Made by a program: the position numbers and the translations under genes. Below the pieces are notes generated by a model that worked only from the letters and a program-made list of their open reading frames with translations, had not been told where the DNA came from and did no database searches. A stretch of 64,000 nt of DNA from Spirochaetota bacterium (GTDB lineage Bacteria > Spirochaetota > UBA6919 > CBDBPB01), in contig CBDBPB010000002.1 in NCBI GenBank assembly GCA_965208615.1, forward strand, positions 92,666 to 156,665, given 5' to 3'. The number at the start of each line of letters is the position of its first letter. Position 1 is the stretch's first letter. This document shows, in pieces, positions 16,217 to 61,847 of the stretch.

Positions 16217-18034
16217 ATGAATATTATTAGAATAGTTCTTTGTTTTGGACTAATTGGCATACTACAATGCAATACCAGTAAGGTTAATTCAAAACAAAAA
16301 AAAGTTATAAGTGGTAATAAACATCTATTTGAACAGCTTGTTAAAGAAAAAGATGGATCAAAAACAAATATAGAATACATAAATAGAGAAGGAATTATTA
16401 GAACCGATGTAATTGTAACTAATCCTATTACCAATGTTAGCGTTAGAGACTTTAATGTTAGAATAACTCAAATTGATAATAGTAGATTTCCAGAGGTTAC
16501 CCTACTAGTAAGCGTAACTGATAAATATGGTAATCCCCTTATTGTTAGCAATAAAGACTACTTTCAGATTGAAGAGCATGGTTTACCTGTTAAGAAAGAT
16601 AATATTATAAGAATTATCCAAAAGAAAGATATAAATGAAAAAGCAAATAAAATACCACTAAATACTGTACTCGCAATAGATAAAAGCGGTTCTATGAATG
16701 GAGGGCTAACCGAAGAAGAAAAACAACCTTTATGGTTTGCTAAAAGGGCCGCTGTTGACTTTATAAATAAGGTAAAGGATGATGATCTTGTTAGAGTTAT
16801 AGCTTTTGATGGTGATATACACTCCCTAGGGTCAAATAAAGAGGCTGTATCAATGATAGACCTGCTAAAACCTAAAGGTTCAACCGCCTTATATGGAGCA
16901 TTATTTATTGGAGTTAAAAAGCTTGAACTTGGATCTGGTATAAAAGCTATGATATTATTGAGCGATGGTAGAAATGATACAAGGGGTACTGTTAGTAATA
17001 CAATAAAGAAGATTACCTTGCAATATGGTATACATGCGGCTGAACAGTTTGCTATTCCTGTTTTTACGATAGGCTTTGGACAAGACTTTGATGAATATAC
17101 CTTAAGGAAAATCGCTAATGATACTCATGCACTATTCTTTAAAACCGCTAATAAAGAAGAAATAAATAAACTATATACGCAAATAAGACAAATTATTACT
17201 ACTCAATATTTAATTACTTATAAGTCTGAGTCATTAGAAGCAGTGACTAATGTTACCGCAAGACTTGGTAAATATGAAGATCACAGACAGTTCATCACTC
17301 CGGAACACGTTATTGAGAGAGAAAAAAAACTTATAAAAGAAATTAATATTGTTGCCAAAGAAAAGTTCCGCTTGGGAAAGGCCAATGAGGATATAAATAA
17401 ACAGATTGCTAACCTTAATCATAGAATGAAGGAATTGGATAAAAAAATACTTATACTAAAAGAAAAAGAGGATCTACTATCTTTAACCTCTAATAAAATA
17501 AACGAAAGAGAAAGTAGGCTAATTAGTTATAATAAAAGTATTAAAGAACTAGAAAATAAGACTAACGAAGATAAAATTAAGCTAAAACAAGAAAAGCAAT
17601 ATCTGGATAATATAAAATCCCAGCTAAATGAAAATAAAATCAGACTGGAAGAAAGAAAGGAAGCATTAGCACAACGTGAAAAAGATATTGATAATAAAAC
17701 TAATCAGCTAAATAATAAAGAAAATGGTTTAGAACAAAAGCTATCAAAACTGGATCAAAAAGAAAATAAAATTAAAGAAGAAGAAGCAAGAATCACCCAG
17801 CTAAAGGCTATGCTAGAAAGCAAAGAAATTGAGTTAAATAGCAAATTAAAAAAGAACGAAAAAATAGAAGTTAATCTTGAAAAAGAAAACAAAGAAATTA
17901 AGCTAAAACAACAAAAACTAAATGAACTAAAAAAACTAATAACTAGCCTATTAAAGCAGATAAAAGTAGAATATGAAGAGTCAATTGATGACCTAGTAAA
18001 ACAAAAAAAAGAATTGGATACAATTAAACCTTAA
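16217..18034 (+). CDS. VWA-domain lipoprotein with long C-terminal coiled coil
   Basis: Lipobox ILQC; MIDAS-type motif LAIDKSGSM; C-terminal ~250 aa highly charged Lys/Glu-rich heptad region. Confidence 0.6.
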   Translation: MNIIRIVLCFGLIGILQCNTSKVNSKQKKVISGNKHLFEQLVKEKDGSKTNIEYINREGIIRTDVIVTNPITNVSVRDFNVRITQIDNSRFPEVTLLVSVTDKYGNPLIVSNKDYFQIEEHGLPVKKDNIIRIIQKKDINEKANKIPLNTVLAIDKSGSMNGGLTEEEKQPLWFAKRAAVDFINKVKDDDLVRVIAFDGDIHSLGSNKEAVSMIDLLKPKGSTALYGALFIGVKKLELGSGIKAMILLSDGRNDTRGTVSNTIKKITLQYGIHAAEQFAIPVFTIGFGQDFDEYTLRKIANDTHALFFKTANKEEINKLYTQIRQIITTQYLITYKSESLEAVTNVTARLGKYEDHRQFITPEHVIEREKKLIKEINIVAKEKFRLGKANEDINKQIANLNHRMKELDKKILILKEKEDLLSLTSNKINERESRLISYNKSIKELENKTNEDKIKLKQEKQYLDNIKSQLNENKIRLEERKEALAQREKDIDNKTNQLNNKENGLEQKLSKLDQKENKIKEEEARITQLKAMLESKEIELNSKLKKNEKIEVNLEKENKEIKLKQQKLNELKKLITSLLKQIKVEYEESIDDLVKQKKELDTIKP

Positions 18035-18038
18035 CTTT

Positions 18039-19676
18039 TTATTTATCTGTGATAATTTGTGGAGAAGCTCCATAAAGTTCTCCCTCGGTTAATAAATACC
18101 TGAAATATGCTATAAAGCTATAACAATAACTTATAGCTTGAGAAGAGTTTGTTCCTTCCAATCTTTTTTTGCCGTCGATGGTATCAAAATATAGTTTTTC
18201 ACTACTATTTTGCGTTACAGAATCACTATTGTTAATCCAGGATAGTATTTTTTCAAGTTTTTTAGTTATGTCTGTTAGCCTTACACGGATAATATTACTA
18301 ATTCTGGTTTGATTATCTTCGAAGGTTAATAGCATCTCATTCTTTTTATAAGTGGATAAGCTAGAATTAATTTCTATATCATTTATCTCTTTTAGTATAG
18401 TAGTATAATCTTTAATTAGGTCATGGCATGAGTTAATGCCTAAGTATAGGTCGCTAAATTCTTTTTTAGTGTCAACCTTTTTTCCATCAAGAAGATCAAT
18501 ATTAAATTTTATTTTATTTGAGGTTAGGATAAAGGAGAACTCTTTTTCAAACTCTTCTAAAATAACATAAACTTTGAATATCTTATCGTTTTTATTAAAA
18601 TAAGCTATATTTCCTTTATCTTTAACAGTTTCATTTGTATAGTCGAGTTTATCTATCCATTCTTTTCCTTCTTTAAGTGATTCTGGTAGTTCTTCTTGTT
18701 TTTTTTCTTTTAGTTTTTCTTCATCATTTTTGTTTGTGGATAATGATTTTTGTTTATTAGTTTTAGTTTTTTTTCTTTCTTTTATTGCCTGTTTAATACG
18801 ATATTCAACTGTCTCACCTTCGTGTATATGCAATAGACCATATATTCTGCTTTGATCTTGGATATAAATATGTTCCATAAAGAGGTTAGAAATAGCATAG
18901 TGTAGTTTGTGAAGGCAGTTATGATAAATAATATCAATAGCTTTTTTTGATTTAGCCATATAATCTTTATAGCTTTGATCGTCTATAAGTTTTAAATCTT
19001 TTTTAATACTTAATGCTAGTTCAACTGCGTCTATAAGTTCGCTATAATAATGTCTAAATAAGTAAAGCCTACGATAAATCTTTTTTATAGGTTCTTCAAT
19101 AGCAATAAAGTCAATATTTCCTATACTATTTTCAGCTATTTTAGAGAAATGTTTAACGTCCTCGGCATTATAAAGATGGCTAGATATTCTTAATAGTTCA
19201 TATAGGTATATATTTTTTTTTATCATAAGAGTTATAAAAGTTTTATATTTAGCTTTTTTGGGATTTAAAATAAATTTTATTACATTATCAAGGTAATATA
19301 GTTCAGTGTTTAATAGAGTTTTTTGTTCGTTAATAAAAGTTTCTTTAAACTGATCCCCAAAAATAGTTTTTACTCCAACAAAAGTCGAAGCCAAATAAAG
19401 TGCAAGCTTATCAAAGAAGCTGTTGTGAGCAATAACTGGAACTCTATCTTCACTTTTTTGTTCTTCTTTATTTTCTTCACCTGCTAATTCTTTAAGTTTT
19501 CGTTTTTCTGATCCACCTATAATATGTTTACTATCTTTTACCTTTGTTTTTTTAACAGGAGGTTTAATAATCTTTCCACCATGATCAATAAATTTATCAA
19601 ATAGTTTTTTTTGTTCTTTTTTATTGAGTTTATCAGCTCCAATTTGTTTATGCAGTTTATCAAATTCGTTTTCCAT
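18039..19676 (-). CDS. Hypothetical protein (545 aa), Lys/Glu-rich
   Basis: Long ORF convergent with the VWA gene; no motif recognised. Confidence 0.4.
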   Translation of the reverse strand: MENEFDKLHKQIGADKLNKKEQKKLFDKFIDHGGKIIKPPVKKTKVKDSKHIIGGSEKRKLKELAGEENKEEQKSEDRVPVIAHNSFFDKLALYLASTFVGVKTIFGDQFKETFINEQKTLLNTELYYLDNVIKFILNPKKAKYKTFITLMIKKNIYLYELLRISSHLYNAEDVKHFSKIAENSIGNIDFIAIEEPIKKIYRRLYLFRHYYSELIDAVELALSIKKDLKLIDDQSYKDYMAKSKKAIDIIYHNCLHKLHYAISNLFMEHIYIQDQSRIYGLLHIHEGETVEYRIKQAIKERKKTKTNKQKSLSTNKNDEEKLKEKKQEELPESLKEGKEWIDKLDYTNETVKDKGNIAYFNKNDKIFKVYVILEEFEKEFSFILTSNKIKFNIDLLDGKKVDTKKEFSDLYLGINSCHDLIKDYTTILKEINDIEINSSLSTYKKNEMLLTFEDNQTRISNIIRVRLTDITKKLEKILSWINNSDSVTQNSSEKLYFDTIDGKKRLEGTNSSQAISYCYSFIAYFRYLLTEGELYGASPQIITDK

Positions 19677-20119: not shown

Positions 20120-21209
20120 ATGATCATAAGTAGCAAAGGGAATAGATTAAATATTAGAGCTTTGTTTTCTTTAAACAAGATTTTTATATTTGTCTTTATT
20201 TTTTTTATGTTTGTGTTAACCATGTTATTCTTCTCTAAGGAAGTTTTATCTCAGGATAGACACAGAATAGATTTTTTAAATAAAAATATAGTCAAAGGTA
20301 TTAATATAGGGGATAATTATTATAGTGAAGATAATGAGAATCTTTTGTATGCCTTAGCTCGTTTTGAGTTGAAGAACAAACAGTTTTTAATTGACGATAA
20401 TATTGTAGACTATAAAGGATATTTTAAACAGTTAAAGTTCCGGACTTATACAATTAAAAAGCGTGATACTCTTAGTAGTATTTCAAGGAAGTTTAATATA
20501 AATATTGCTACTTTAGTAAGTTTTAATAACATAGAGGTTGATAAGGCTTTAAGGATTAATAATCAGCTTTTTATTCCGAGTATGGATGGGATTTTATATT
20601 CTGTTAAAAAAGAGGATAGTTTAAGAGGTATTGTAAAGAAGTACTCAAAATATAATGTTAAGTTAGGCGACATAATTTATTTAAATAATATAGTAAATAA
20701 CAAGATAATAGAGAAAGAGCGTCTTTTTATTCCTGGAGCAAAAATAGCTAAGAATCTTCTTATTAAGAAGTTAGAGCATACTTTTGCAATACCGGCAAAA
20801 GGTAGGATAACATCATTAGTGGGGATGAGGCCTAGTATTTTTAAGGGTCCCCAAAAAGGGTTATGAATTTCATCCAGGGGTTGATATAAAGGCCTATTAT
20901 GGTTCACCTGTGAGGGCGGCCAAAAGTGGACGAATAAAGTTAGCAGGTAGAGTTAAGGGATATGGAAAAGTAATTTTCATTAACCATGGTAATGGTTTAC
21001 AGACTAGATATGGTCATTTATCCCGGATATTGGTAAAACGTGGAGAGAGGGTAAGGAAGAGGCAGGTAATTGGGAAGGTAGGCAGTACTGGCAATTCTAC
21101 AGGTCCACATCTTCATTTTGAAGTGAGAAAGTATGGTAAGGTAGTTAATCTTACTCGTAAGTTTAAGGGATTAAGGTTAAAGCGTGGCGGATACTGGAAG
21201 TGGAATTAA
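20120..21209 (+). CDS. LysM-domain M23 metallopeptidase, interrupted by a +1 shift near 20849-20860
   Basis: Two LysM-like segments in ORF 20120-20866. M23 signature continues in the next frame (EFHPGVDI...GSTGNSTGPHLHFEV) in ORF 20910-21209. Shift sits in a C4-A5-G3 run. Confidence 0.65.
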
Positions 21210-21240
21210 TTTTATAATTTGTAGACATATTATAGTTTTT

Positions 21241-21480
21241 ACTCATAGGGGATTAGGCATACTTTTTTTAGATTTACTGTGTGTTATCAAAGGTATTACT
21301 ATGCTATTGTAAAGAGGTTTTGCTAGTTTACTTTTTATAATTGTTGTTTATTTATAGGGGATTAGGCATACTTTTTTTAGATTTACTGTGTGTTATCAAA
21401 GGTATTACTATGCTATTGTAAAGAGGTTTTGCTAGTTTACTTTTTATAATTGTTGTTTACTCATAGGGGATTAGGTATAC
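21241..21480 (+). repeat. Tandem repeat, ~110 bp unit, about 2.2 copies
   Basis: Unit starting ...ataggggattaggcatactttttttagatttactgtg... recurs at 21241, 21351 and partially at 21459. Confidence 0.75.
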
Positions 21481-21859
21481 TTTTTTGAAGTTTTACACAT
21501 AACGTCAATATCTAATATTTAAATAATCCGCTCTACACCTTTATGGAACTGCAAATCCGTTAACACTTAATAAGGGTCTATAATCCTTAGTCTCAGTAAG
21601 GGATTCTTAATAGCTCCCGTAATGATGACTACTTGCATAAAAAGTGATATTTTGTGTTAATTACTAAGGCATTTAAACAGCACTTAAAGAGCATATAGGG
21701 ATAACCTGCTTGACACAGGAAAATAACTTTTCCATAAATATTTTAACTTTCCTGTTCCACAAAGAGATATAAAATACATCTGCCTTTACGTTATATGTCT
21801 TGCTTTTTACCTTGTAGACTTTGTCATAACTATGTCATAAAATGACAACTGAATTATTA
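21481..21859 (+). repeat. Conserved noncoding block, copy A (paired with 58116-58570)
   Basis: Near-identical long stretch in both loci (e.g. ...ccgctctacacctttatggaactgcaaatccgttaacactt...cttgacacaggaaaataacttttcc...); no ORF of 60 aa or more in any frame. Confidence 0.7.
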
Positions 21860-22712
21860 AATAATATCCCTTTAGCCTTAACAAAAAATAAATATACTTA
21901 CTCGTCTGACTTAAAGTCTAAGCGTACAAGTTTATATGCATGTCTATTTTCAACAACCTAAACTTGATGGAGTATCCGTTATACTAAACCATAAAAAAGA
22001 AAAACTATATTCCCTTTAACCTCAACAAAAAATAAATATACCTACCAGCCCTAACTCAAGGTCTGAGCGTACAAGTTTATATGCATGTCTATTGTCAACA
22101 ACCTAAACTTGATAGAGTGCCTGTTATACTAAACCATAAAAAAGAAAAACTATATTCCCCTTAGCCTCAACAAAAAATAAATATACTTACTCGCCTGACT
22201 TAAAGTCTAAGCGTACAAGTTTATATGCATGTCTATTGTCAACAACCTAAACTTGATGAAGTATCCGTTATACTAAACCATAAAAAAGAAAAACTATATT
22301 CCCCTTAGCCTCAACAAAAAATAAATATACTTACTCGCCTGACTTAAAGTCTAAGCGTACAAGTTTATATGCATGTCTATTGTCAACAACCTAAACTTGA
22401 TGAAGTATCCGTTATACTAAACCATAAAAAAGAAAAACTATATTCCCCTTAGCCTTAACAAAAAATAAATATACTTACCCGCCTGACTTAAAGTCTAAGC
22501 GTACAAGTTTATATGCATGTCTATTGCCAACAACCTAAACTTGATGGAGTGCCTGTTATACTAAACCATAAAAAAGAAAAGCTATATTCCCCTTAGCCTT
22601 AACAAAAAATAAATATACTTACTCGCCTGACTCAAGGTCTGAGCGTACAAGTTTATATGCATGTCTATTGTCAACAACCTAAACTTGATGAAGTATCCGT
22701 TATACTAAATTA
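21860..22712 (+). repeat. Tandem array, 144-145 bp unit, about 6 copies
   Basis: Landmark acaaaaaata recurs at 21881, 22025, 22170, 22314, 22458, 22602. Unit contains ...gtctaagcgtacaagtttatatgcatgtctattgtcaacaacctaaacttgatg.... Confidence 0.85.
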
Positions 22713-23070
22713 TCACATATTATGTATAGGTATGGCAATTGGGAATATTAAAACCTCTTATTAAAATATAGCTATCCCCTTTGAAATAGGTTTAAGTACT
22801 TTTTCAGGATGCGGAGAGGATGATATATCCTGTGAGGCTCTGGGTGATTGTGATAAAAATGTTGAAAGTCAGCTAGAGAAAGCAAAAGATGAGGTTACAG
22901 CTGCAAATAAAGAGGTTAACGATGCAAAGAAAGAGGTTAAAAAGGATAAAAAATTAACGCCTGAAGAATTAGAAGAAGCAAGAAAAAAATTAGAAGAAGC
23001 AAGAAAAAAATTAGAAGAAGCAGAAAAAAGATTAAAAGAAGCAAAAAAGATATTAGAAAAGCTAGAAGAT

Positions 23071-25524
23071 ATGTTCCTTAAGGTTTGCAAGGTAACAAGA
23101 ACTACGGATGCTTATATTAACGCTGTTACTTGTAATAAGACTCTCGAGGATAAGTGTAATGGTGAGTGGGATTCACAAGACTGTATAGCGTCTCTTGGTA
23201 CGGCAATTGGGGTATGTAGAGTAGAAAAAGATACAACTACTCGTACTGACGTTGTTACTTGTAATACGATGGTTCAAAGTGAGTGTGATGACAAACTAGG
23301 TGAGTGGGGCTTGCAAAGCTGTACTACAAATCCTGGTACTAAAAGGCTAAAAGCAGTGCCAGAAGCAATATGCAAGGTAATTAGAGATACAGCTTCTCAT
23401 GCTAATGTAGTTACTTGTAATACAATGGTTCAAAGTGAGTGTAGTAAAAGTAAAAGAAAAGGTAATTGGAATCCACAAATCTGTAATCCAGATATTGGTA
23501 CGCCAATAAGTAAAACCTGTAAGATAATAAAAGATTCGGATACTCATACTGATGTTGTTACTTGTCAGACTACTACTAAGGCTGATTGTCCAAGTCCAAG
23601 TGTGTGGGATCCAAAAACCTGTATTCCGTCTATTGGTAATACATGTAAGATAACAGAAAATACGGATAGTCATACCGGCGTTGTTACTTGTAAAAAAACT
23701 ACTAAGGATGATTGTCAAGGTGAGGGGCGTGCGTGGGGTCTACTAGCCTGTACTGAGTCTATTGGTACTCCAATAACTAAGACATGCAAAGTGGAAAAAG
23801 ATACGGATAGTCATACCGGCGTTGTTACTTGTGATAAAACTACTAAAACTCAGTGTGATACTGATAAGGGTACCTGGGACCCACCAAGCTGTGAGCCGTC
23901 TGATGGTACAAAAAGGCAAACACCAGTGGAAGAAAAGGTTTGTAAGATAACAAAAGATACGGATACTCATACAGGCGTTGTTACTTGCGATAAGAATATT
24001 AAGACTGAGTGTGATACTAAACAAGGTGAGTGGGATCCACAAACCTGTACTCCGTTTACTGGTCAGCCCAAGACTAAGATTTGTAAGATAACAACAGAGA
24101 CGTATACTCATACAGGCGTTGTTACTTGTGATACAACTACTAAGGCTCAGTGTGATACTGATAATGGTGATTGGGACTCACAAAGCTGTACTACAAATCC
24201 TGGTACGCCTAAGACTAAGGTTTGCAAGATAACAGAAAATACGCCTACTCGTAGAGGTGTTGTTACTTGTGATACAGCTACTAAAACTCAGTGTGATACT
24301 GATAAGGGTGAGTGGGGCTTAAAAAGTTGTACTCCATCTAAGGGTAAGGCAATTAAGGTTTGTAAGATAACAACAGAGACGCCTAGTCATACAGGCGTTG
24401 TTACTTGTGAGAAAACTACTAAAACTAAGTGTGATACTAAACATGGTGAGTGGGACTCAACAAACTGTACTCCGTCTGCTGGTACGCCCATACCAAATGG
24501 TACGCCCATACCACCTGGGGTTGTTTTTGTAAAAGCTGGAACTCGTACTACTAAAAATGGGAAATCCTGGAATACTGCTTATAGTGATCTTCAAAAAGGT
24601 ATTGAGGAAGCCTCAGAAAAGTTTAAGTCTACTAAAAAACCTGTTAAGGTATATGTAGCCCAAGGGACTTATAAGCCTCAGAGTAGGCCAAATGGTGGTA
24701 CTAGTGATCGTCATAACCATTTTTCATTAAGGAATGGTGTAGAGGTTATTGGGGGTTTTCCTGGTCTAATTACTGGTGAGTCTAATAATCCTAACTACTA
24801 TAAGACTGTCCTAAGCGGTGATATCAGAAGAGTGGGCGATGATAGTGATAACGCCTATCATGTTTTTTATCATCCAGCTACTGCAAAGCTAGATAACACT
24901 GCAAAGTTAGTAGGGGTTATAATTACCAAAGGCAATACTAATACTAGTAGTAATTCCCATAGTTCTGGAGGAGGCATGTTTAATTATGAGAGCTCTCCAA
25001 CGTTAACAAATGTGGAGTTTAATAGTAATACGGCATCATACGGAGGGGGCATGGATAATACTAGTAGTAGCTCTCCAACGTTAACAAATGTGGAGTTTAA
25101 TAGTAATACGGCATCATACGGAGGGGGCATGTTTAATTTTAATAATAGCTCTCCAACGTTAAAAGATGTGACTTTTACTAGTAATACGGCTACTTATAGA
25201 GGAGGGGGCATGTATAATTATAATGAGAGCTCTCCCACTTTAACAAATGTGACTTTTACTAGTAATACGGCTAATAGGTACGGAGGGGGCATGGTTAATT
25301 GGGGTAATAGCAAGCCCACTTTAGATAATACGGTGATTTTTAATAAAAACATTGCTGGTAGTGTTGCTAATAGCCAAATAGGCAAAGGCGGGGCTATTTA
25401 TAATTATTCCTCAAGCATAACAGGCACACCAACCTATGGAACGGGTACTAATGAAAATAAAAAGGTTGTCAAAAATAATAATGGCACATATAAACTTATA
25501 AAGTCAAACCTTGACTCAGACTAA
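23071..25524 (+). CDS. Pmp-like repeat surface protein, paralog 1; lacks signal peptide
   Basis: About ten Cys-rich ~47-51 aa modules (CKITKDTDTHTGVVTCDKTTKTxCDTDKGxWDPxSC), then a choice-of-anchor / beta-helix-like region and five or more GGGM-Y/F-N...VTFTSN units. The frame is open upstream to 22765 but has no ATG/GTG/TTG before 23071. Confidence 0.6.
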   Translation: MFLKVCKVTRTTDAYINAVTCNKTLEDKCNGEWDSQDCIASLGTAIGVCRVEKDTTTRTDVVTCNTMVQSECDDKLGEWGLQSCTTNPGTKRLKAVPEAICKVIRDTASHANVVTCNTMVQSECSKSKRKGNWNPQICNPDIGTPISKTCKIIKDSDTHTDVVTCQTTTKADCPSPSVWDPKTCIPSIGNTCKITENTDSHTGVVTCKKTTKDDCQGEGRAWGLLACTESIGTPITKTCKVEKDTDSHTGVVTCDKTTKTQCDTDKGTWDPPSCEPSDGTKRQTPVEEKVCKITKDTDTHTGVVTCDKNIKTECDTKQGEWDPQTCTPFTGQPKTKICKITTETYTHTGVVTCDTTTKAQCDTDNGDWDSQSCTTNPGTPKTKVCKITENTPTRRGVVTCDTATKTQCDTDKGEWGLKSCTPSKGKAIKVCKITTETPSHTGVVTCEKTTKTKCDTKHGEWDSTNCTPSAGTPIPNGTPIPPGVVFVKAGTRTTKNGKSWNTAYSDLQKGIEEASEKFKSTKKPVKVYVAQGTYKPQSRPNGGTSDRHNHFSLRNGVEVIGGFPGLITGESNNPNYYKTVLSGDIRRVGDDSDNAYHVFYHPATAKLDNTAKLVGVIITKGNTNTSSNSHSSGGGMFNYESSPTLTNVEFNSNTASYGGGMDNTSSSSPTLTNVEFNSNTASYGGGMFNFNNSSPTLKDVTFTSNTATYRGGGMYNYNESSPTLTNVTFTSNTANRYGGGMVNWGNSKPTLDNTVIFNKNIAGSVANSQIGKGGAIYNYSSSITGTPTYGTGTNENKKVVKNNNGTYKLIKSNLDSD

Positions 25525-25554
25525 TAAGTATATTTATTTAGTCCGTTAAAATTA

Positions 25555-25580
25555 AGGGGAGTATAGCTCCTCTTTTTTTT
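25555..25580 (+). terminator. Rho-independent terminator shared by the paralog family
   Basis: aaggggagtatagctcctc followed by T8; same element after all three paralogs. Confidence 0.7.
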
Positions 25581-25762
25581 ATGGTTTTTATAACAAAGTA
25601 GCATAAATAGCAGTTATAGCATAGATAGACTTGACTTATCCTTCTATAAATATTATCCTATGTGATAGAACAAGTTAATTTACTTTTAATTCTATAGTTT
25701 TTAATAAAAAGTTGTTTTTTGTTTAGTTTGAGTTATCTTATAAAAAAACAAGGAATTAAGTT

Positions 25763-27136
25763 ATGACAAAAAAGAATTATTTAAACATTTTAATAATACT
25801 ATTAATTAGTATTTCGTTAGTTAGGGGCAAGTGCGATTCCGATAAGGTAATAAGTCCTCCTTCTGATGGTACAGAAAGGCCAGAACCAGTGGAAGAAAAG
25901 GTTTGTAAGATAACAACAGATACGGATACTCGTAGAGGTGTTGTTACTTGTGAAAAGAATACTACTAATTGTCAAGGTGAGTGGGTCGTAGGATGTCGTC
26001 CATCTAACGGTATACTTATTCCAAAAGCTCAAAAAGATCAAATTTTTGTAAAAGCTTTAAACCAAGATGAAAGGCGCTCTAATGAAGATGGAAAGTCCTG
26101 GACAACTGCCTTTAGTGATCTTCAAAAAGGTATTAAGTATGCTTTTGAGAATAATAAAAAGATGGTATATGTAGCCCAAGGGACTTATAAGCCTACTAGT
26201 TATCCAAATGGTGGTAGTGGTGATGATCGTTATAAGCATTTTTCATTAAGGAATGGTATAGAGGTTATTGGAGGCTTTCCCGGTGAAAAGCTTGATGAGC
26301 CTAATAATCCTGAGCAATATGAGACTATTCTAAGCGGTGATATTGGAACTAAAGATGATAGAGATAACGTCTATCATGTTTTTTATCATCCTGATGGTAC
26401 AAACCTAAATAACTCAGCAAAGCTAGCTGGGGTTACAATTACCCAAGGCTATGCTTATTTTGCGTCTCCTGATGTTAATGAGCCTCGTAAGTTAGGAGGG
26501 GGCATGTATAATTTTAAGAGCTCTCCAACGTTAACAACTGTGACTTTTCGTAATAATACGGCTAGAGATGGAGGGGGCATGTATAATTTTAAGAGCTCTC
26601 CAACGTTAACAGGTGTGGCTTTTACTGAAAATACGGCTATTACCGGAGGGGGCATGCGTAATTATAAGGATAGCTCCCCAACGTTAAAAGATGTGACTTT
26701 TACTAAAAATGAGGCTACTGTTAACGGAGGGGGCATGCATAATTGGGATAATAGCTCTCCAAAGTTAACAGATGTGACTTTTACTAAGAATAAGGCTACT
26801 ATTAACGGAGGGGGCGGCATGTATAATTATTATTATAGCTCCCCAAAGTTAACAGGTGTGACTTTTAATAGTAATACGGCTAGTAGGTACGGAGGGGGCA
26901 TGTTTAATTTTGTTGGTTGCTCTCCAGAGTTCATAAGTAATGTGGTTTTTAATAAAAACATTGTTGGTAGTGTTGGTAGTGACCTAATAAGCTACGGCGG
27001 GGCTATTTATAATAGTAAGACTTCAGCCATAACAGGCACTCCAACCTATGGAACGGGTGATGATGAAAATAAAAAGGTTGTCAAAAATACAGATGGCACA
27101 TATAGTTTTGTAAAGTCAAACAGTTGGCCATGGTAA
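25763..27136 (+). CDS. Pmp-like repeat surface protein, paralog 2 (short form)
   Basis: Own N-terminal hydrophobic leader; one Cys module, then the same beta-helix-like region and about seven GGGM units; same C-terminal segment (ITGTPTYGTG.DENKKVVKN) and 3' flank as paralog 1. Confidence 0.7.
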   Translation: MTKKNYLNILIILLISISLVRGKCDSDKVISPPSDGTERPEPVEEKVCKITTDTDTRRGVVTCEKNTTNCQGEWVVGCRPSNGILIPKAQKDQIFVKALNQDERRSNEDGKSWTTAFSDLQKGIKYAFENNKKMVYVAQGTYKPTSYPNGGSGDDRYKHFSLRNGIEVIGGFPGEKLDEPNNPEQYETILSGDIGTKDDRDNVYHVFYHPDGTNLNNSAKLAGVTITQGYAYFASPDVNEPRKLGGGMYNFKSSPTLTTVTFRNNTARDGGGMYNFKSSPTLTGVAFTENTAITGGGMRNYKDSSPTLKDVTFTKNEATVNGGGMHNWDNSSPKLTDVTFTKNKATINGGGGMYNYYYSSPKLTGVTFNSNTASRYGGGMFNFVGCSPEFISNVVFNKNIVGSVGSDLISYGGAIYNSKTSAITGTPTYGTGDDENKKVVKNTDGTYSFVKSNSWPW

Positions 27137-27165
27137 TAAGTATATTTATTTAGTCCGTTAAAATT

Positions 27166-27192
27166 AAGGGGAGCATAGCTCCTCTTTTTTTT
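27166..27192 (+). terminator. Rho-independent terminator (family 3' flank)
   Basis: ggggagcatagctcctc hairpin followed by T-run. Confidence 0.7.
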
Positions 27193-27293
27193 ATGGTTTT
27201 TATAACAAAGTAGCATAAATAGCAGTTATAGCATAGATAGACTTGACTATATATTTAATTTTGATATATATTTTTATAGTGCATAGAAGACTA

Positions 27294-27752: not shown

Positions 27753-28110
27753 ATGAGAGAAGAATTTATACCTATTGTTATATATACGGCTTTAGTTGTT
27801 GGTTTAGGTCTTTTATTTTTACTTATGTCGAGGTATATTGGGCCAATAAAAAAGTCTAAGCAGAAGTATGATCCTTATGAGTGTGGAGTAGAGCCAATAG
27901 ATTCTTTAAGAAAGAGGTTTCATATAAGGTTTTTACTTAATAGCTGCGTTATTTATTTTGTTTGACATTGAAACTGTATTTTTATTGCCATGGGCGGTAA
28001 CTTTTGCTGATATGACTATATTAGCTATAGTTGAGGTTGTTGTATTCATAGGTATTTTGGCTATTGGACTATTATATATTATTAAAAAGAAGGTATTTCA
28101 ATGGGATTAG
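27753..28110 (+). CDS. nuoA: NADH-quinone oxidoreductase subunit A, with apparent +1 shift in a T5 run at 27930-27934
   Basis: N-terminal part ...YECGVEPIDS...RFHIRF in one frame; conserved continuation YLIAALFILFDIETVFLLPWAV... in the next frame, ending at 28110. Confidence 0.75.
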
Positions 28111-28587
28111 AGTCTCATTTACATGGTTTTATTACTACTAAGCTTGACAAGCTGGTTAATTGGGGACGAAAGAACTCATTATGGGCCTATGCCTTTTGGG
28201 GTAGCATGTTGTGCAATAGAGTTTATGGGTTTACTTTGTTCACGGTTTGATTTAGCTCGATTTGGAGCTGAGGTAATACGTTTTTCTCCAAGACAGTCTG
28301 ATTTACTTATTATATCTGGTAGGATATCTATCAAGATGTTGCCTGTTCTAATAAAGATTTATGAGCAGATGCCTGCACCAAAGTGGGTTATTAGTGTTGG
28401 AGCTTGTTGTTCATCTGGGGGAGTGTTTGATACATATACTCTTATACAGGGTGTGGATCAGTTTATACCTGTTGATTGTTATGTACCTGGTTGTCCACCA
28501 AGGCCAGAGGCATTTATAGAGGCTCTTATGTTCATTCAGAAAAAGATAGACAGCGAAAGAATACAGGATAACATACACGGAAAGTAA
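28101..28587 (+). CDS. nuoB: NADH-quinone oxidoreductase subunit B, with apparent +1 shift (tggg) near 28180-28195
   Basis: N-terminus LDKLVNWGRKNSLW in the frame from ATG 28101; conserved continuation PMPFGVACCAIEFM...GCPPRPE in the ORF 28123-28587 frame. Confidence 0.8.
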
Positions 28588-32136: not shown

Positions 32137-33625
32137 ATGCCAGAGGTAAATAAGTTATTAAGTGTTACAATTGACGGTCAGAAGTATGAGGTTAAGGAAG
32201 GTTTAACTGTACTACAGGCATGTTTAGATTTTGGTATTGATGTGCCTTATTTTTGTTATCATCCTTGTTTATCTACTGCTGGTAATTGTAGGATGTGTTT
32301 AGTTAAAATAGATAAAATACCTAAGCTTGCTATATCATGTGCTACTATGGTTGCTGAGGGGATGAACATATACACTAAAGACCCAGAGGTAATTAAGGCT
32401 CGTAATGCTATTATGGAGTTTTTATTAATAAATCATCCACTTGACTGTCCTGTATGTGATCAGGCTGGTGAATGTACTTTACAGGACTACTCATACCGAC
32501 ATGGGAGAGATTCGGGCAGGTTTACCGAAGAGCGTAATGTTAGGCACAAAAAAGACTTTGGGCCAAATGTCAAATATTGGGGTAGTCGGTGTATTATGTG
32601 TACAAGGTGTATACGTTTTTGTCAGGAGGTTAGTGGTACTGACGAGTTATACGCTTTTAACAGAGGGGATCGTTCTGTAATTGATATATTCCCTGGCATA
32701 GAGCTTAATAATCCATTATCTATGAATGTGGTTGATATTTGTCCTGTTGGAGCTTTAGTTAGTTCTCATTTTTTATATCAGGCACGGGTATGGAATATGG
32801 AGCAAAGGCATAGCCTATGTATAGAGTGTTCTACTGGATGTCATAACTAGGGTTGATTCTTTAGGCAATAGGATTAAGCGTATAGTACCTAGTTCAAATG
32901 ATCGATTTATGTGTGATCATGGTAGGCTAAGTTATGGATATATGTATTCTGAGGATAGGCTTCGTTATCCTTTGGTTAATGGGGATAAGTTAGCTTCGTG
33001 GTCAAAGGTAATGTCCGTATTTAGGGATAAGATAAGACGGTATGCTAGTAAGTCTAGTAGGTTAGCTTTTTTGATTTCTGCATGGAATACTAATGAGGCT
33101 ATGTTTATGGTTAACAGGCTTAAGGATAGTTGCTTAGACAAGAGTGACGTCTATTTGTATTATAAGCCTGATGAAGAGGATAAGGTTTTTCCTAAGTTTA
33201 GGATTAGTGGTGATCGTAATCCTAATATAAATGGTTTTAAGGCGGTTTTTAAAACGGGTGACATTAAAAAGCACTCAGTTAATTTATTAGTAGATAGGGT
33301 TAAGGCTAAAGAGGTTGATGTAGTTATAATAATAGGGGGTATATCCAGTGGATATATGCCTGAGAGTATTACTAATGTTTTATCTGATCTTAAAGATGTT
33401 ATTGTAATAGATTATATTAGTTCATCTTTTAGTAAGGCTGCGAGTTTGGTTTTACCTTCACTTAGTTATGCTGAGAAGGCTGGTAGTTATGTTAATGATC
33501 AGCTTAAGGTTAAAGCTGTTAAGCCTGTTATCAATCCTTTTACCCCTGGTAAGTCAGAAGATGTTATTTTACAAGAGCTTATCATTGCCCTATCAGAAAA
33601 AGGTGAGGTTTTTATCTACTGCTGA
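32137..33625 (+). CDS. nuoG: NADH-quinone oxidoreductase subunit G (short form), with apparent +1 shift near 32845-32852
   Basis: N-terminal 2Fe-2S / 4Fe-4S cysteine clusters in ORF 32137-32850. Continuation ...RVDSLGNRIKRIVPSSNDRFMCDHGR... in the next frame (ORF 32909-33625). Confidence 0.75.
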
Positions 33626-49404: not shown

Positions 49405-51021
49405 ATGAAAAGTAAAATAATTGCTTTAAAATTAACTATACTACTTATTATGGGATGTAGTGATACTAAACATTCTCCAACATATTATTCTCCTAAAAAA
49501 AAAGATAGTAGTGCCTTATTTAGTAATAGATATTCTGAAAAAAAAGCATACCTCAATGAAAAAAGAGTCTTGCCCCCTGAGCTAAAGGATAGAGAAAAAT
49601 ATGAGTATTACGGCGAGAACCCCAGAACCAGTCCACTGATTAATCCTGTTAGCACTTTCAGCATTGACGTGGATACTGCTAGCTATACAAATGCAAGAAG
49701 ATATATTAATAGAATGAATAAACTACCTCCAAAGTCGTCTATCAGAGTGGAAGAGTTCATAAACTATTTTGACTATAATTATCCTCTACCAAAAAGTAAT
49801 AATCCCTTTTCGATTAACTTTGAACTTGCTCAGTCCCCCTTTGACAACAATAGACTATTACTGCATATAGGCCTTAAGGGCAAGGAAATACCATTCGAAA
49901 AAAGACCTGCATCTAATTTGGTATTTCTTCTGGATGTATCTGGATCTATGAACTCAGAGTTTAAGCTGGGACTGCTTAAAAAAGCACTTATTATGCTTAC
50001 TGATCAGATGACTGAAAAAGATAAAGTTAGTATTGTTGTATACGCTGGTTCATCCGGAGTTGTTCTACTACCCACTAATGGTAATAAAAAAGCTGAAATT
50101 AAAAATGCTCTTAATAGGCTAAGTGCTGGTGGTAGTACTGCTGGATCAGAGGGTATTCAGTTGGCGTATAAAATGGCTGAAAGGGCTTATATAAAAAACG
50201 GCATTAATCGTGTTATCCTTGCCACTGATGGGGATTTTAACGTTGGTATAACAGATCACAAGGAACTTATTACTCTTATTGAAAATAAAAGAAAATCTGG
50301 GATAGCCTTAACTGTTTTGGGTTTTGGTATGTGGAACCTTAATGATAGAACTATGGAACAGCTAGCTAATAAGGGTAATGGTAACTATTTCTATATTGAT
50401 AGCTCAAACGAAGCAAAAAAAGTATTGGTTAATGAATTAGGCTCTACCCTTCAGATTATTGCTAAGGACGTTAAAGTTCAGATCGAGTTTAATCCTAAGT
50501 ATATATCCTCTTATAGGCTTATTGGATATGAAAATAGAAAGCTATCCAAAGAGCAGTTTGACGATGACACCGTTGATGCTGGGGATATTGGTGCAGGACA
50601 TAGTATAACAGCTATTTATGAGCTTACTATGACCAGTAGAGCTAAGGATCAGATGAATCTACGCTATGGTGAGGAGCATAGCACTATTAAAAAAGGTATT
50701 AAAAAAACTAATACCACCTTTAAAGATGAAATTGCCTTTTTTAAACTTAGGTATAAGCCTGATAACGGCAAGGTTAGCAAGTTGATTACAAAACCTTTGT
50801 TAAAAAGTGATCTTATTACTAATAAGCCCAGTAATAATTTTATTTTCTCAGCGTCTGTGGCATACTTTGCTCAAAAGCTTAGGGAGAGCAAGTATTCTAA
50901 GGGTATAGGTTATAATAAGATTCTTAATATGATGGCTAGTAGTAAAGGTGAGGATAAATGGGGATATAGACAAGAATGCGAAAACCTTATTAGAAAAGCA
51001 AAGACTATATCAAAGGGATAA
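49405..51021 (+). CDS. VWA-domain lipoprotein (YfbK-like)
   Basis: Lipobox IMGC; MIDAS motif LLDVSGSMN with downstream SAGGSTAGSEG and ATDGDFNVG. Confidence 0.65.
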   Translation: MKSKIIALKLTILLIMGCSDTKHSPTYYSPKKKDSSALFSNRYSEKKAYLNEKRVLPPELKDREKYEYYGENPRTSPLINPVSTFSIDVDTASYTNARRYINRMNKLPPKSSIRVEEFINYFDYNYPLPKSNNPFSINFELAQSPFDNNRLLLHIGLKGKEIPFEKRPASNLVFLLDVSGSMNSEFKLGLLKKALIMLTDQMTEKDKVSIVVYAGSSGVVLLPTNGNKKAEIKNALNRLSAGGSTAGSEGIQLAYKMAERAYIKNGINRVILATDGDFNVGITDHKELITLIENKRKSGIALTVLGFGMWNLNDRTMEQLANKGNGNYFYIDSSNEAKKVLVNELGSTLQIIAKDVKVQIEFNPKYISSYRLIGYENRKLSKEQFDDDTVDAGDIGAGHSITAIYELTMTSRAKDQMNLRYGEEHSTIKKGIKKTNTTFKDEIAFFKLRYKPDNGKVSKLITKPLLKSDLITNKPSNNFIFSASVAYFAQKLRESKYSKGIGYNKILNMMASSKGEDKWGYRQECENLIRKAKTISKG

Positions 51022-55547: not shown

Positions 55548-57392
55548 ATGTCTATGAAAAATACTAAATCTACAAACAGGAGATCATTTATATTATCTGT
55601 ATCACCGTTTAACATATTAAGTAGTTCAGAAGTTGAGCTACTTATACCTTCTATAAAGGAATTTACCTTTGAAGAAGATCAAATTATTGCAAAGGAAGGA
55701 GGAGAACCTGAGTTTTTTTATTTAGTTGTTTATGGAGTAGTTAAAAAGCGTTGTGATAGGGATGACATTTTGTATTACTATCCAGGGGATAGTTTTGATG
55801 TTACCTCACTTATTAATAATATAAATGAACATACCTTCGACGCTGACGAAAAGACTTTATGTATTGCTATACCTAAGGATACATTTCTTAAGTTGATGTC
55901 TATCAACAGTGCTTTTGAGAAGTACTATCTTCAGGACTTATCACAAAAGATACACTCTATGATAAACAAGGATGTTAATCAAGAGCTGGCATCATTTATG
56001 GCGGCTAAGGTGGAGGATAGTCTTATACACCCTGCAATTTGTGTTAGTGAGAAGACATCCATTTATGATGCTGTTAAGAAGATGAGTGAAAATCATATAT
56101 CTAGTATATTGGTCGATTGTCCAAACTGTAAGGGGGGATATGGTATAGTTACTGATACTGATCTTCGTAAAAAGGTGATATTAGAGAATCGGTCTTACGA
56201 AGATGATATAGGTAATATTACTACTAATAAGTTAATCAGCATTGATAAAGAGGATTTTCTTTATAATGCATTACTGCTTATGACAGAACACTCAGTAAAG
56301 CGTCTTATTGTTAAGGATGACAATAAGATAGTGGGTACTTTGGAGCAGATAGATGTACTTAGTACAATATCTCATAGATCTAGATTATTCCACGTTCGTA
56401 TTAACAGGGCTACTAGTGTTGAGGAGTTAAAGACAGCTAGTAAGGAGTCTATTTATATGATTAAGGCTTTGCTTAGTCAGGGAGTTAAGGTAATTAATAT
56501 AACGAAGCTCTTGTCTCAGTTGTACTCTCAGTTATTTAGGAAGCTTTTTGAGATATTGGCACCTAAGGATTTGATTGATAATTCATGTTTAGTAGTTTTG
56601 GGTAGTGAGGGTAGGGGGGAGCAGATTCTCAAAACTGATCAGGATAACGCTATTATACTAAGAGACGGATATAGAAATGATAATTTTAGGGAGATAATGA
56701 ATGCTTTTACTAATGCTTTGCTGGAGTGTGGTTATCCAAGGTGCAAGGGTAATATTATGGTATCCAATCCATATTGGGCAAAGTCTCTTAGGGAGTATGA
56801 GACTGAGATTAAGAACTGGATGGTAAATCTAAAGAATGAGGATATAATTAATATAGCGGCTTTATACGATGGTATTGCTGTAGCGGGGGACAAATTACTT
56901 TTGGATGAGTTAAAGGAGAGGTTTTTGCTATTGAGGAAGGATAAGAATTTATTATCCCAGTTTGCTTATCCAACAGTATATATAGCTACACCTCTTTCAT
57001 TTTTCAACAAGTTTATTTTGGATAAGGGTCACAATGATATGCTTGATATTAAGAAGGGTGGGATATTTCCGATAGTTCATGGTATTAGGAGTTTTGCGTT
57101 GGAGGCGAATCTTAGTGAGACTAATACTTTTGAGCGTATTGAGAAGATTAGTGAAATGGGGATTATAAAGAAAGACATAGCAGATGAGCTTATAGAGGCA
57201 TTAAACTTTTTATTAACTATTAGGTTAAGGGTTAGGCTGGATAAGACGGATAAGGGAGAAAAGCTTGATAATTATATTGATCCTAGGGTATTATCCAAGT
57301 TGGAGCAGGATGTATTAAGAGATATTTTAAAGATAGTCAAGCGTTTTAAGGAGTTAGTTAGTTATCATTTTAGGTTAGACAGTCTTGGATGA
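55548..57392 (+). CDS. cNMP-binding / tandem CBS / DUF294 nucleotidyltransferase-domain signalling protein
   Basis: cNMP-binding-like N-terminus, CBS pair, nucleotidyltransferase signature LVVLGSEGRGEQILKTDQDNAIIL. Confidence 0.7.
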   Translation: MSMKNTKSTNRRSFILSVSPFNILSSSEVELLIPSIKEFTFEEDQIIAKEGGEPEFFYLVVYGVVKKRCDRDDILYYYPGDSFDVTSLINNINEHTFDADEKTLCIAIPKDTFLKLMSINSAFEKYYLQDLSQKIHSMINKDVNQELASFMAAKVEDSLIHPAICVSEKTSIYDAVKKMSENHISSILVDCPNCKGGYGIVTDTDLRKKVILENRSYEDDIGNITTNKLISIDKEDFLYNALLLMTEHSVKRLIVKDDNKIVGTLEQIDVLSTISHRSRLFHVRINRATSVEELKTASKESIYMIKALLSQGVKVINITKLLSQLYSQLFRKLFEILAPKDLIDNSCLVVLGSEGRGEQILKTDQDNAIILRDGYRNDNFREIMNAFTNALLECGYPRCKGNIMVSNPYWAKSLREYETEIKNWMVNLKNEDIINIAALYDGIAVAGDKLLLDELKERFLLLRKDKNLLSQFAYPTVYIATPLSFFNKFILDKGHNDMLDIKKGGIFPIVHGIRSFALEANLSETNTFERIEKISEMGIIKKDIADELIEALNFLLTIRLRVRLDKTDKGEKLDNYIDPRVLSKLEQDVLRDILKIVKRFKELVSYHFRLDSLG

Positions 57393-58115: not shown

Positions 58116-58570
58116 ATCAGTCATTTTATTAGTGAAGATTTCAGTAGTTTACTTTTTATAGTTGTTATTTATCATAGAGGATTAGGCATACTTTTTTGAA
58201 GTTTTACACATAACGTCAACATGTAATATTTAAATAATCCGCTCTACGCCTTTATGGGACTGCAAATCCGTTAACACTTAATAAAGGTCTATAATTCTTA
58301 GTTCCAGTAAGGGATTCTTAATAGCTCCCGTAATGATGACTACTTGCATAAAAAGTGATATTTTGTGTTAATTACTAAGGCATTTAAACAGCACTTAAAG
58401 AGCATATAGGGGTAACCTGCTTGACACAGGAAAATAACTTTTCCATGAATATCTTAACTTTCCTGTTCCACAAAGAGATATAAAATACATCTGCCTTTAC
58501 GTTATATGTCTTCATTTTGCCTTGTATCCCTCGTCATTACTACGTCATAAAATGATAACTAAATTATCAT
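58116..58570 (+). repeat. Conserved noncoding block, copy B (paired with 21440-21859)
   Basis: Near-identical to copy A over its length, with scattered substitutions. Confidence 0.7.
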
Positions 58571-58860
58571 AAAAAAGAAGAGCCGTCCTCCCCTTAATTT
58601 TAACAAAAAAATAAACTATACTTACTAACTTTACTCAAAGTCTAAGCGTACAAGTTTATATGCATGTCTATTTTCAACAACCTAAACTTGATGGAGTGCC
58701 TGTTATACTAAACCATAAAAAAGAAAAGCTATATTCCCCTTAGCCTTAACAAAAAATAAATATACCTACCAGCCCTAACTCAAGGTCTGAGCGTACAAGT
58801 TTATATGCATGTCTATTGTCAACAACCTAAACTTGATGAAGTATCCGTTATACTAAATTA
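58571..58860 (+). repeat. Tandem array, 144-146 bp unit, about 2 copies
   Basis: Same unit family as 21860-22712. Confidence 0.75.
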
Positions 58861-59076
58861 TTACATATTATGTATAGGTATGCCAATTGGGAATATTAAA
58901 ACCTCTTATTAAAATATAGCTATCCCCTTTGAAATAGGTTTAAGTACTTTTTTTAGTTGTATTTTTCTTTGAGATTGATTACCTTATAGTAGATTTATTT
59001 TTAAATGATATAGCTTTATATGCGTTGGCCTATTAGAGCTTAACGTTTTAAGCTAAAAAAAACAATAGGGGGAATC

Positions 59077-61743: not shown

Positions 61744-61771
61744 GTATATTTATTTAGTCCGTTAAAATTAA

Positions 61772-61797
61772 GGGGAGCATAGCTCCTCTTTTTTTTA
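61772..61797 (+). terminator. Rho-independent terminator (family 3' flank)
   Basis: ggggagcatagctcctc followed by T8. Confidence 0.7.
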
Positions 61798-61847
61798 TTG
61801 GTTTTAATAACATTGAAATATTTATAGATGTAGGTTATATTTACTTA

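Follow-up and report, generated by a model that had tools for sequence, protein, structure and literature searches.

Why should a non-coding block of some 430 bp be kept nearly alike at two loci lying 36.7 kb apart, each time ahead of a gene from the same family? This question is raised by a 64-kb window (the whole stretch of contig CBDBPB010000002.1 that was analyzed), in which the block recurs in the same, direct orientation upstream of two genes for repeat-rich lipoproteins, here called A1 and B after loci A and B, while a third family gene, A2, lies just beyond A1. The answer towards which the evidence leans, if only slightly, is that repeated short-tract gene conversion keeps the boundary sequences of this family alike and thereby mainly explains the conservation of the block, the associated tandem arrays being by-products that resemble variable-number tandem repeats (VNTRs). 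The identity between the two loci is a mosaic of patches ranging from 81 to 100%, and the block is the distal part of an upstream module of 1.1-1.5 kb, not a stand-alone element.

The initial annotation had reported a recurrence of about 400 bp with scattered substitutions, which pairwise alignment bears out: 25 substitutions (20 transitions and 5 transversions) and 8 indel columns separate 21433-21863 from 58145-58567, corresponding to ~94% identity. The recurrence itself, thus, stands, but the start proposed for copy B (58116) was ~29 nt too far to the left, and alignment places it at 58145; to the left of the block, the sequences of the two loci are unrelated (53% identity). Self-BLAST of A against B returned E=0 across 716 columns. 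An nhmmer model of the block retrieved both copies with E <=1e-154 and found the full block only at A and B in the 64 kb, with two additional copies of its first 55 nt inside the neighboring 109-bp repeat (21225-21269 and 21325-21378). The statement that the block holds no open reading frame (ORF) of 60 aa or more is also correct, the longest called ORFs being 31 aa (A) and 43 aa (B) and the longest stop-free run 53 codons, and each copy does precede an array with a period of 144/145 bp (according to Tandem Repeats Finder, TRF, 5.8 units at A and 2.0 at B) and then a paralog gene. What that description overlooked is the continuation of the homology to 22905/59220, inside coding sequence, the deletion of the gene start from locus A within a 167-bp segment, and the origin of the array in antisense 3' ends of the family genes.

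From left to right, the module comprises the block, the tandem array, a 95-bp promoter-proximal segment, and the first 24 codons of the mature protein. The homology ends abruptly after ~100 nt of coding sequence, as seen by self-BLAST and alignment; beyond this point, the coiled-coil parts of the two proteins are non-homologous and the remaining gene bodies are 75-82% identical. Along the module, the identity amounts to 92.5% in the 5' part of the block, 98.6% in its core (21594-21803, with 3 differences in 209 positions), and 81.5% in its 3' part, then to 85.6%, 93%, and 97% in the first, second, and last array units, 97.9% in the post-array segment, and 100% over the first 73 coding nucleotides (the start of A1 against 59120-59192 of B). 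This unevenness is significant (chi-square P=3e-6), and permutation tests gave P=0.001 for the occurrence of three substitutions or fewer in any 209-nt window and P=0.014 for the 107-nt unchanged run. Because divergence along the repeat is so uneven, one duplication event is insufficient to explain it. The suggestion, made at the outset, of a recombination module or a recent duplication fits, in that the block lies within a longer repeat of mosaic identity.

The 3' boundary of the genes is conserved as well. Over 57 nt past the stop codon, the flanks of A1, A2, and B are 98-100% identical, and the similarity of A1 to A2 extends to 110 nt. At the 5' boundary, around the 167-bp indel, 113 of 115 positions are identical upstream and 73 of 73 downstream. 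Boundaries that are far more alike than the gene bodies they enclose are a signature of concerted evolution at the boundaries. For the coding sequences of the family, the synonymous divergence (dS) ranges from 0.07 to 0.27, and the ratio of nonsynonymous to synonymous divergence (dN/dS) from 0.8 to 3.1. In the last ~66 codons (25315-25521, 26930-27133, and 61519-61740), dN/dS was 1.6-3.1 by the Nei-Gojobori method, on a small sample.

Under gene conversion, the two loci, and the 5' and 3' boundaries of the family generally, would be kept similar by short-tract homologous recombination, while the repeat-rich coding bodies would diverge under diversifying or relaxed selection. The conservation of the block, including that of its 98.6% core, would then mainly reflect recent conversion patches rather than a sequence-specific function, and the three kinds of 109-175 bp array would have arisen, like VNTRs, through slippage or unequal exchange; in the antisense 3'-end array, what was amplified would be the stump of a family gene that once lay here in divergent orientation. 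More speculatively, the identical 73-nt 5' and ~57-nt 3' boundaries would let the body of the start-less A1 be copied into B. Shuffling within the family is supported by the mosaic N-terminus of a further protein (P0242, described below) and by the widely differing repeat numbers of the paralogs.

Several points weigh against this explanation. Two copies are too few to distinguish recent conversion of the 209-bp core from purifying selection; the segments entered in the chi-square test were picked after looking at the data, and no conversion event was observed directly. In addition, the nuo operon lies between the direct-oriented loci, so that a reciprocal exchange between A and B would be harmful, and only non-reciprocal conversion would be viable. 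Finally, large tandem arrays stand on both sides of both blocks, an association which is left unexplained if the block is a passive passenger.

Table 1. Positions of the module, the lipoprotein genes, and the tandem arrays in the 64-kb window.
Feature	Position	Strand	Description
Locus-A repeat, 109 bp x 2.3, 96% identity	21238-21486		TRF; follows the stop of the M23 peptidase gene
Conserved non-coding block, copy A	21433-21863		Pairwise alignment with copy B
Block core	21594-21803		206/209 identical to 58305-58513; 107-nt run unchanged
Array A, 144 bp x 5.8	21864-22709	-	TRF (21867-22709), 93% matches; antisense family 3' ends
Post-array segment A	22710-22804		93/95 identical to 58858-58952
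Gene A1, 5'-deleted	22805-25524	+	Frame opens ..FSGCGEDD..; 10 Cys-rich and 5 GGGM (Pmp-type) repeats
A1 3' flank and intrinsic terminator (GGGGAG-loop-CUCCUC, U8)	25525-25592	+	Fold z=-2.3
Gene A2 (457 aa) and conserved 3' flank	25763-27204	+	Different signal peptide; 1 Cys and 6 Pmp repeats
Locus-B repeat, 175 bp x 4.7, 98% identity	57299-58118		TRF; ends 27 nt before block B
Conserved non-coding block, copy B	58145-58567		Pairwise alignment, nhmmer; core 58305-58513
Array B, 145 bp x 2.0	58568-58857	-	TRF, 84% matches; same antisense 3'-end relic
Post-array segment B	58858-58952		Promoter-like sites 58887-58915 (plus) and 58886 down to 58857 (minus)
Segment present only in B, 167 bp	58953-59119	+	Most of the 5' untranslated region (UTR), ribosome-binding site GGGGGA, ATG 59077, signal peptide MKKVFFILLTLALL(TGC)
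Gene B, full start	59077-61743	+	5 Cys and 12 Pmp repeats
B 3' flank and intrinsic terminator	61744-61811	+	Fold z=-3.7

The genes concerned can be described in some detail. Gene B has the make-up of a lipoprotein, combining a lipobox-bearing signal peptide and the N-terminus CGEDDISCEALG.CDKNVES with a coiled coil, Cys-rich repeats, and a beta-helix of Pmp repeats; its signal peptide also gives an LPAM_1 lipoprotein-signal hint. The Pfam family Chlam_PMP (PF02415, cutoff 20.6) matches A2 with 27.4 bits and the C-terminal part of B with 52.1 bits, and A2 additionally matches Beta_helix. A1 scores 17.0 bits on Chlam_PMP, below the cutoff, although it contains five GGGM repeats. No autotransporter domain was found in these proteins, which end ~70 aa past the last repeat and begin with a lipoprotein signal; the family is one of predicted Pmp-repeat lipoproteins, not of autotransporters. 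The second type of repeat, an orphan Cys-rich repeat of ~47 aa (CKVTKDTDTHTGVVTCDKTTKTKCDTDKGxWDPxSC..), corresponds to no Pfam family and is present 10 times in A1 (23071-24490), 5 times in B (59540-60190), and once in A2 (25900-26010).

This family is specific to its lineage and has few relatives. When the N-terminal Cys-repeat module was searched against 5.8 billion proteins, only B itself and P0242 were matched, and against 1.84 billion cluster representatives, only B itself and A2; presumably, all these matches come from the same assembly, two of them from the window's own 168-kb contig. In P0242, encoded on a 605-kb contig that is probably part of the same assembly, a zincin metalloprotease-like domain (HEIGHLLGLRH) is joined to the same signal peptide and the same N-terminus (CGEDDISCEALG.CDKNVES), together with a coiled coil and a single Cys repeat. 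One stretch of its N-terminus is B-like and another A1-like; the 5' coding module is, therefore, common to at least three genes with different bodies. Searches of genomes and metagenomes for loci matching the family profile returned only distant relatives, at 23-39% identity.

The two loci differ at the gene start. Locus A is devoid of exactly the 167 bp that are present in B, a clean indel that ends two codons before the lipobox cysteine, and A1 is left with an in-frame stop upstream and with no ribosome-binding site, start codon, or signal peptide. As its gene start is missing, A1 cannot be made as a lipoprotein. It keeps a stop-free frame of 919 codons (22765-25524), 906 of them counted from the deletion junction. 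Gene A2 has neither block nor array upstream, nor the shared 5' boundary sequence.

Assembly quality has to be considered in this context. As assembled, gene B contains three 1-nt frameshifts, at ~60179-60183 (G5), 60281-60285 (A5), and 60843-60849, and frameshifts of the same kind break nuoA, nuoB, nuoG, and the LysM-M23 (DipM/NlpD-like) peptidase gene; the positions concerned are 27753-28250, 32850-32909, 20866-20910, and 60179-60849, and several of them fall at short homopolymers (C4A5G3, G5, A5). Because so many breaks hit an otherwise complete respiratory operon, these frameshifts, including those of the three nuo genes, are probably indel errors of the assembly rather than marks of true pseudogenes, so that the organism probably has an intact gene B. 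The deletion of 167 bp at locus A is different in kind from such errors.

The surrounding window is AT-rich chromosomal DNA (~33% G+C), of which the plus strand shows a strongly positive GC skew. Its housekeeping genes include thrC, thiamine biosynthesis genes, sppA, the nuoA-N operon, genes for a copper-transporting ATPase, ilvB/ilvN, and an amidase gene. The closest named matches of NuoL are annotated 'MAG: Spirochaetota bacterium' (66-69% identity), and the host is probably an uncultured, deep-branching spirochete-like bacterium. No tRNA or tmRNA genes were found in the 64 kb. Near the lipoprotein loci are two genes for von Willebrand factor A-like domain proteins (16217-18034 and 49405-51021) and, on the minus strand, a 545-aa ORF with no Pfam match (18039-19676).

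The array shared by the two loci has a traceable composition. Its units, read on the minus strand, are decayed family gene ends, each consisting of ~20 codons (60-75 nt), a stop codon, a 3' UTR, and a terminator. The eight array units were aligned with the reverse complement of the A1, A2, and B 3' ends; over ~124 nt, units and real 3' ends are ~77-83% identical, and stretches of 12-17 nt spanning the stop codon match exactly. With nhmmer, a model of the unit matches the minus strand at 61697-61779 (E 4e-15), 25463-25563 (E 6e-10), and 27029-27175 (E 9e-7) and, in the opposite direction, a model built from the three real 3' ends finds all eight units on the minus strand (E 8e-18 to 2e-9, model positions 14-137). 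The reverse complement of the unit translates as ..VVDNRHAYKLVRSDLESGE up to the stop codon and VYLFFVKAKGN after it, with the stop codon in register with that of gene B, of which the 3' end reads ..VVKVGNTYKLVQSNLESGQ before the stop and VYLFSPLKLRGA after it (starting with VYLFS). The GC skew of the array on the plus strand is -0.30, versus +0.19 to +0.53 around it, and, therefore, fits an origin on the other strand. The units are unstructured, except for the first unit of B, which carries a terminator-like hairpin followed by a T-run on the minus strand (58595 down to 58575).

Positional variants of the units agree between the loci, unit 1 of A with unit 1 of B, and units 2 and 6 of A with unit 2 of B. 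Because of this match, an array of at least two units must be older than the A/B split, with changes in copy number afterwards. The simplest history would start with a divergently oriented family gene at this place, of which the body was lost and the 3' stump amplified in tandem. The best promoter-like sites of the region, which are consensus matches only, stand back to back in the post-array segment, outside the block. In segment A, they consist of TTGGGA-17-TAAAAT on the plus strand (22739-22767) and of TTGCCA-18-GATAAT, with a preceding TG, on the minus strand (22738 down to 22709), the latter being a 10/12 consensus match directed into the array. This arrangement would fit a former divergent promoter region. 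Homologous inversion between an array unit and the gene's own 3' end was also considered and is unlikely to take place today, with longest exact matches of 12-17 nt.

The arrays on the left side of the blocks have other origins. The 109-bp array spans the left boundary of block A, so that the first ~55 nt of the block are present three times, and the 175-bp unit is composed of the last 94 nt of a CBS/cNMP/DUF294 nucleotidyltransferase gene (55548-57392) and 81 nt of downstream sequence, forming a string of partial ORFs. As they are made of unrelated local sequence, the left arrays arose independently at each locus. All of the noncoding (intergenic) arrays with a period of at least 100 bp in the 64 kb (four of four) sit within 30 nt of a block copy. 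It is possible that long intergenic regions simply tolerate slippage, or that the module promotes local duplication. These arrays have the attributes of intergenic VNTRs, with head-to-tail periods of 109, 144/145, and 175 bp and, for the shared array, 5.8 versus 2.0 copies at the two loci.

The alternative that survives best, which is nevertheless regarded as unlikely, is one recent segmental duplication of block, array, promoter, and gene, followed by neutral decay, A1 then being a dead pseudogene and the block junk that has yet to diverge. It would account for the average block divergence of ~6%, which is within the range of the gene dS values (0.07-0.27), for substitutions that are mostly transitions devoid of coding or structural pattern, and for the loss of the A1 start, and it is in line with the fact that no function of the block was detected. 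The initial annotation had set such a duplication, gene included, against its own proposal of a functional element. The 5' end of the gene is indeed part of the repeat, but the gene bodies are 75-82% identical or non-homologous, and divergence swings from 0% to 18.5% between adjoining segments. Against such a duplication, the homology also stops inside the coding sequence, with non-homologous coiled-coil parts on either side of the comparison, the 3' flanks are 98-100% identical against the 75-82% of the bodies, and A1 retains its long stop-free frame.

Somewhat less probable still is that the 209-bp core acts as a functional cis element under selection at both loci, either as a distal regulatory or recombination-initiating site, or as the template of an unstructured small RNA or small peptide. 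The core is significantly better conserved than the rest of the block (3/209 versus 22/214 differences), both of its copies lie between tandem arrays, and it includes both a perfect TTGACA and an inverted repeat of 8 bp (ACAGGAAA-N25-TTTCCTGT, at 21712-21766 and 58423-58477). This repeat is seen as a hairpin in folds, with two of the three core substitutions in its loop, and two of the three are synonymous in one minus-strand frame. Nevertheless, 430 AT-rich bases are expected to contain such an inverted repeat by chance (an estimate, not a computed value), and the TTGACA has no acceptable -10 box at proper spacing. The small ORFs of the two copies share neither start nor length (29 versus 43 aa) and have no convincing ribosome-binding site and no Pfam match. 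Moreover, the distance from core to gene differs by ~550 bp between the loci, owing to the array length.

Searches for other signals in the block gave the same picture. At the gathering threshold, Rfam gave 0 matches over the whole window and, with E up to 10, only chance-level matches in 21150-23100, the best with 18 bits for a cutoff of 53. Structure was assessed by comparing folding energies with those of dinucleotide shuffles, as covariation needs more than the two sequences; no excess was found in either copy on either strand, with z scores of -0.5 to -0.9 for the whole-block fold and never below -1.9 for 100-nt sliding windows of the block. There is no terminator inside the block, no sigma-54-like site at three mismatches or fewer in a consensus scan, and no 3-base periodicity in its six frames, of which the open fragments have no Pfam match; promoter-like matches in the block region are not more numerous than expected from shuffles. 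The small RNA or structured 5' leader that had been put forward at first is, thus, unsupported, and the block should not be annotated as an RNA gene.

Some further features of the block were recorded. Its only direct repeat is an 11-bp duplication at 21818-21839, in the poorly conserved part. At the right end of the block (21818-21850 and 58528-58560), this tandem duplication is followed by a palindrome (ACTTTGTCATA ACTATGTCATA AAATGACA), and in copy B both TGTCAT motifs are altered in parallel to CGTCAT. The left end of the block was considered as a possible terminator relic and this was rejected, being unsupported by nhmmer and folding; a kinship of the block with the DNA downstream or upstream of the family genes was likewise rejected, with Smith-Waterman scores at shuffle level.

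A more ambitious interpretation, considered improbable, would make the two loci a chromosomal surface-variation system of a new protein type, Pmp-repeat lipoproteins bearing an orphan Cys-rich stalk, in which A1 donates its body to B through the identical boundaries, and core and array are active parts. Core and array could then form a recombination-initiating or fork-stalling site that spawns the flanking arrays or, alternatively, a source of RNA complementary to all family mRNA 3' ends, enforcing exclusive expression. Lower still in probability is a general role of the array as a source of regulatory RNA that couples the expression of the family genes, its plus strand being antisense to their mRNA 3' ends, or its minus strand, transcribed from 22738-22709 and 58886-58857, serving as a decoy. 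The complementarity of the units to the real 3' ends over ~124 nt, at ~77-83% identity with exact runs of 12-17 nt, would allow this, the best promoter-like match of both regions, at 10/12 and preceded by a TG, lies on the minus strand and faces the array, and in B, the terminator-like hairpin closes the array. However, the count of promoter-like matches does not exceed the shuffle expectation, the units are decayed and unstructured, and the left arrays, being of unrelated local sequence, suggest general amplification rather than a designed RNA.

Finally, that the block is a non-autonomous mobile element (a miniature inverted-repeat transposable element or insertion sequence remnant) or the end of a mobile gene cassette is very improbable, since its sharp left boundaries at two unrelated chromosomal sites and its GC skew (-0.09), unlike that of the surroundings, are offset by the absence of terminal inverted repeats and target-site duplications at the block, of transposase or recombinase genes or domains among the genes of the 64-kb window, and of matches in plasmid, phage, viral, metagenome, and GTDB representative collections (0 for a block 23-mer in GTDB representative genomes and viral contigs, 0 for an array-core 24-mer in viral contigs and JGI metagenomes, and none by blastn, 'distant' setting, against plasmids and phages), and by the linkage of the only two copies in the window to one type of gene.

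Gene conversion at the boundaries, which remains the preferred explanation, can be compared with systems in which surface-protein genes recombine. In Borrelia hermsii, the Vmp system has one expression site and ~60 promoterless silent vsp/vlp copies on linear plasmids, with a 61-62-bp upstream homology sequence (UHS) and 214-bp downstream homology sequences (DHS) with an inverted repeat as crossover elements, and its expression site is preceded by a poly-T run and three inverted repeat elements of ~1 kb, whose role is unknown (PMC6011951). The loci described here likewise belong to a spirochete-related host and encode predicted surface lipoproteins; one copy has the complete gene start and one lacks it, although this is a single pair, with a promoter that is only predicted and with three frameshifts, probably assembly errors, in the start-bearing copy. 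As with the UHS, the start of the mature coding region lies within a short conserved sequence (113/115 and 73/73, with the peptide also present in P0242); as with the DHS, A1, A2, and B are each followed by a conserved extragenic element that contains an inverted repeat; and repeated elements lie upstream of the start-bearing copy. Differences are equally clear. The proteins are unrelated, with a Pmp-repeat beta-helix instead of Vsp or Vlp (Pfam gives Chlam_PMP and Beta_helix, and no Vsp or Vlp families), the loci are chromosomal and stand amid housekeeping genes, and a single start-less copy is seen, which retains the whole upstream module. The 'DHS-like' element is simply a terminator, and no switching was observed.

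Silent copies also feed gene conversion in Neisseria pilE/pilS and in Anaplasma msp2, with its 'functional pseudogenes' (PMC4534519). Here too, a donor-like copy (A1) has an open frame without ribosome-binding site and N-terminal coding region, conserved 5' and 3' ends surround a variable center, and family members are mosaic. Unlike in those systems, there is no homology to pilin or Msp2, and the donor role of A1 is putative; an upstream G-quadruplex (G4) element was not seen by eye, no formal scan having been made. In the Mycoplasma vsa and vpma lipoprotein loci, silent genes lack the promoter and N-terminal coding region, and expression changes by site-specific inversion of oppositely oriented genes, with an adjacent recombinase (PMC4534519). 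A1 lacks the same part as the silent vsa genes (5' UTR, start, and signal peptide), and the proteins are again repeat-rich lipoproteins; in contrast, A1 and B are both on the plus strand, 36.7 kb apart, with no recombinase domain in the window. With regard to the silent-cassette systems of Borrelia, Neisseria, and Anaplasma, an apparent resemblance is noted, and membership is not claimed.

Conserved boundaries of a recombining surface-protein family, together with intergenic VNTRs, are of a kind already known, and it is the variant that is new. If the boundary-homology explanation is true, these loci would offer a compact case of a surface-protein family kept recombinable on the chromosome, among housekeeping genes, and outside the classical pathogens. 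The arrays are best compared with VNTR-141 and VNTR-105 of Wolbachia, intergenic VNTRs of reduced or host-associated bacteria (PMC3287509), with which they share head-to-tail intergenic repeats of 105-175 bp, a hairpin in the unit, high unit identity, and variable copy number. They differ from these in that the array lies within a repeat common to paralog loci, and in that the origin of its unit can be traced, probably to the amplified stump of an antisense 3' end with its terminator, which can aid the interpretation of such arrays elsewhere.

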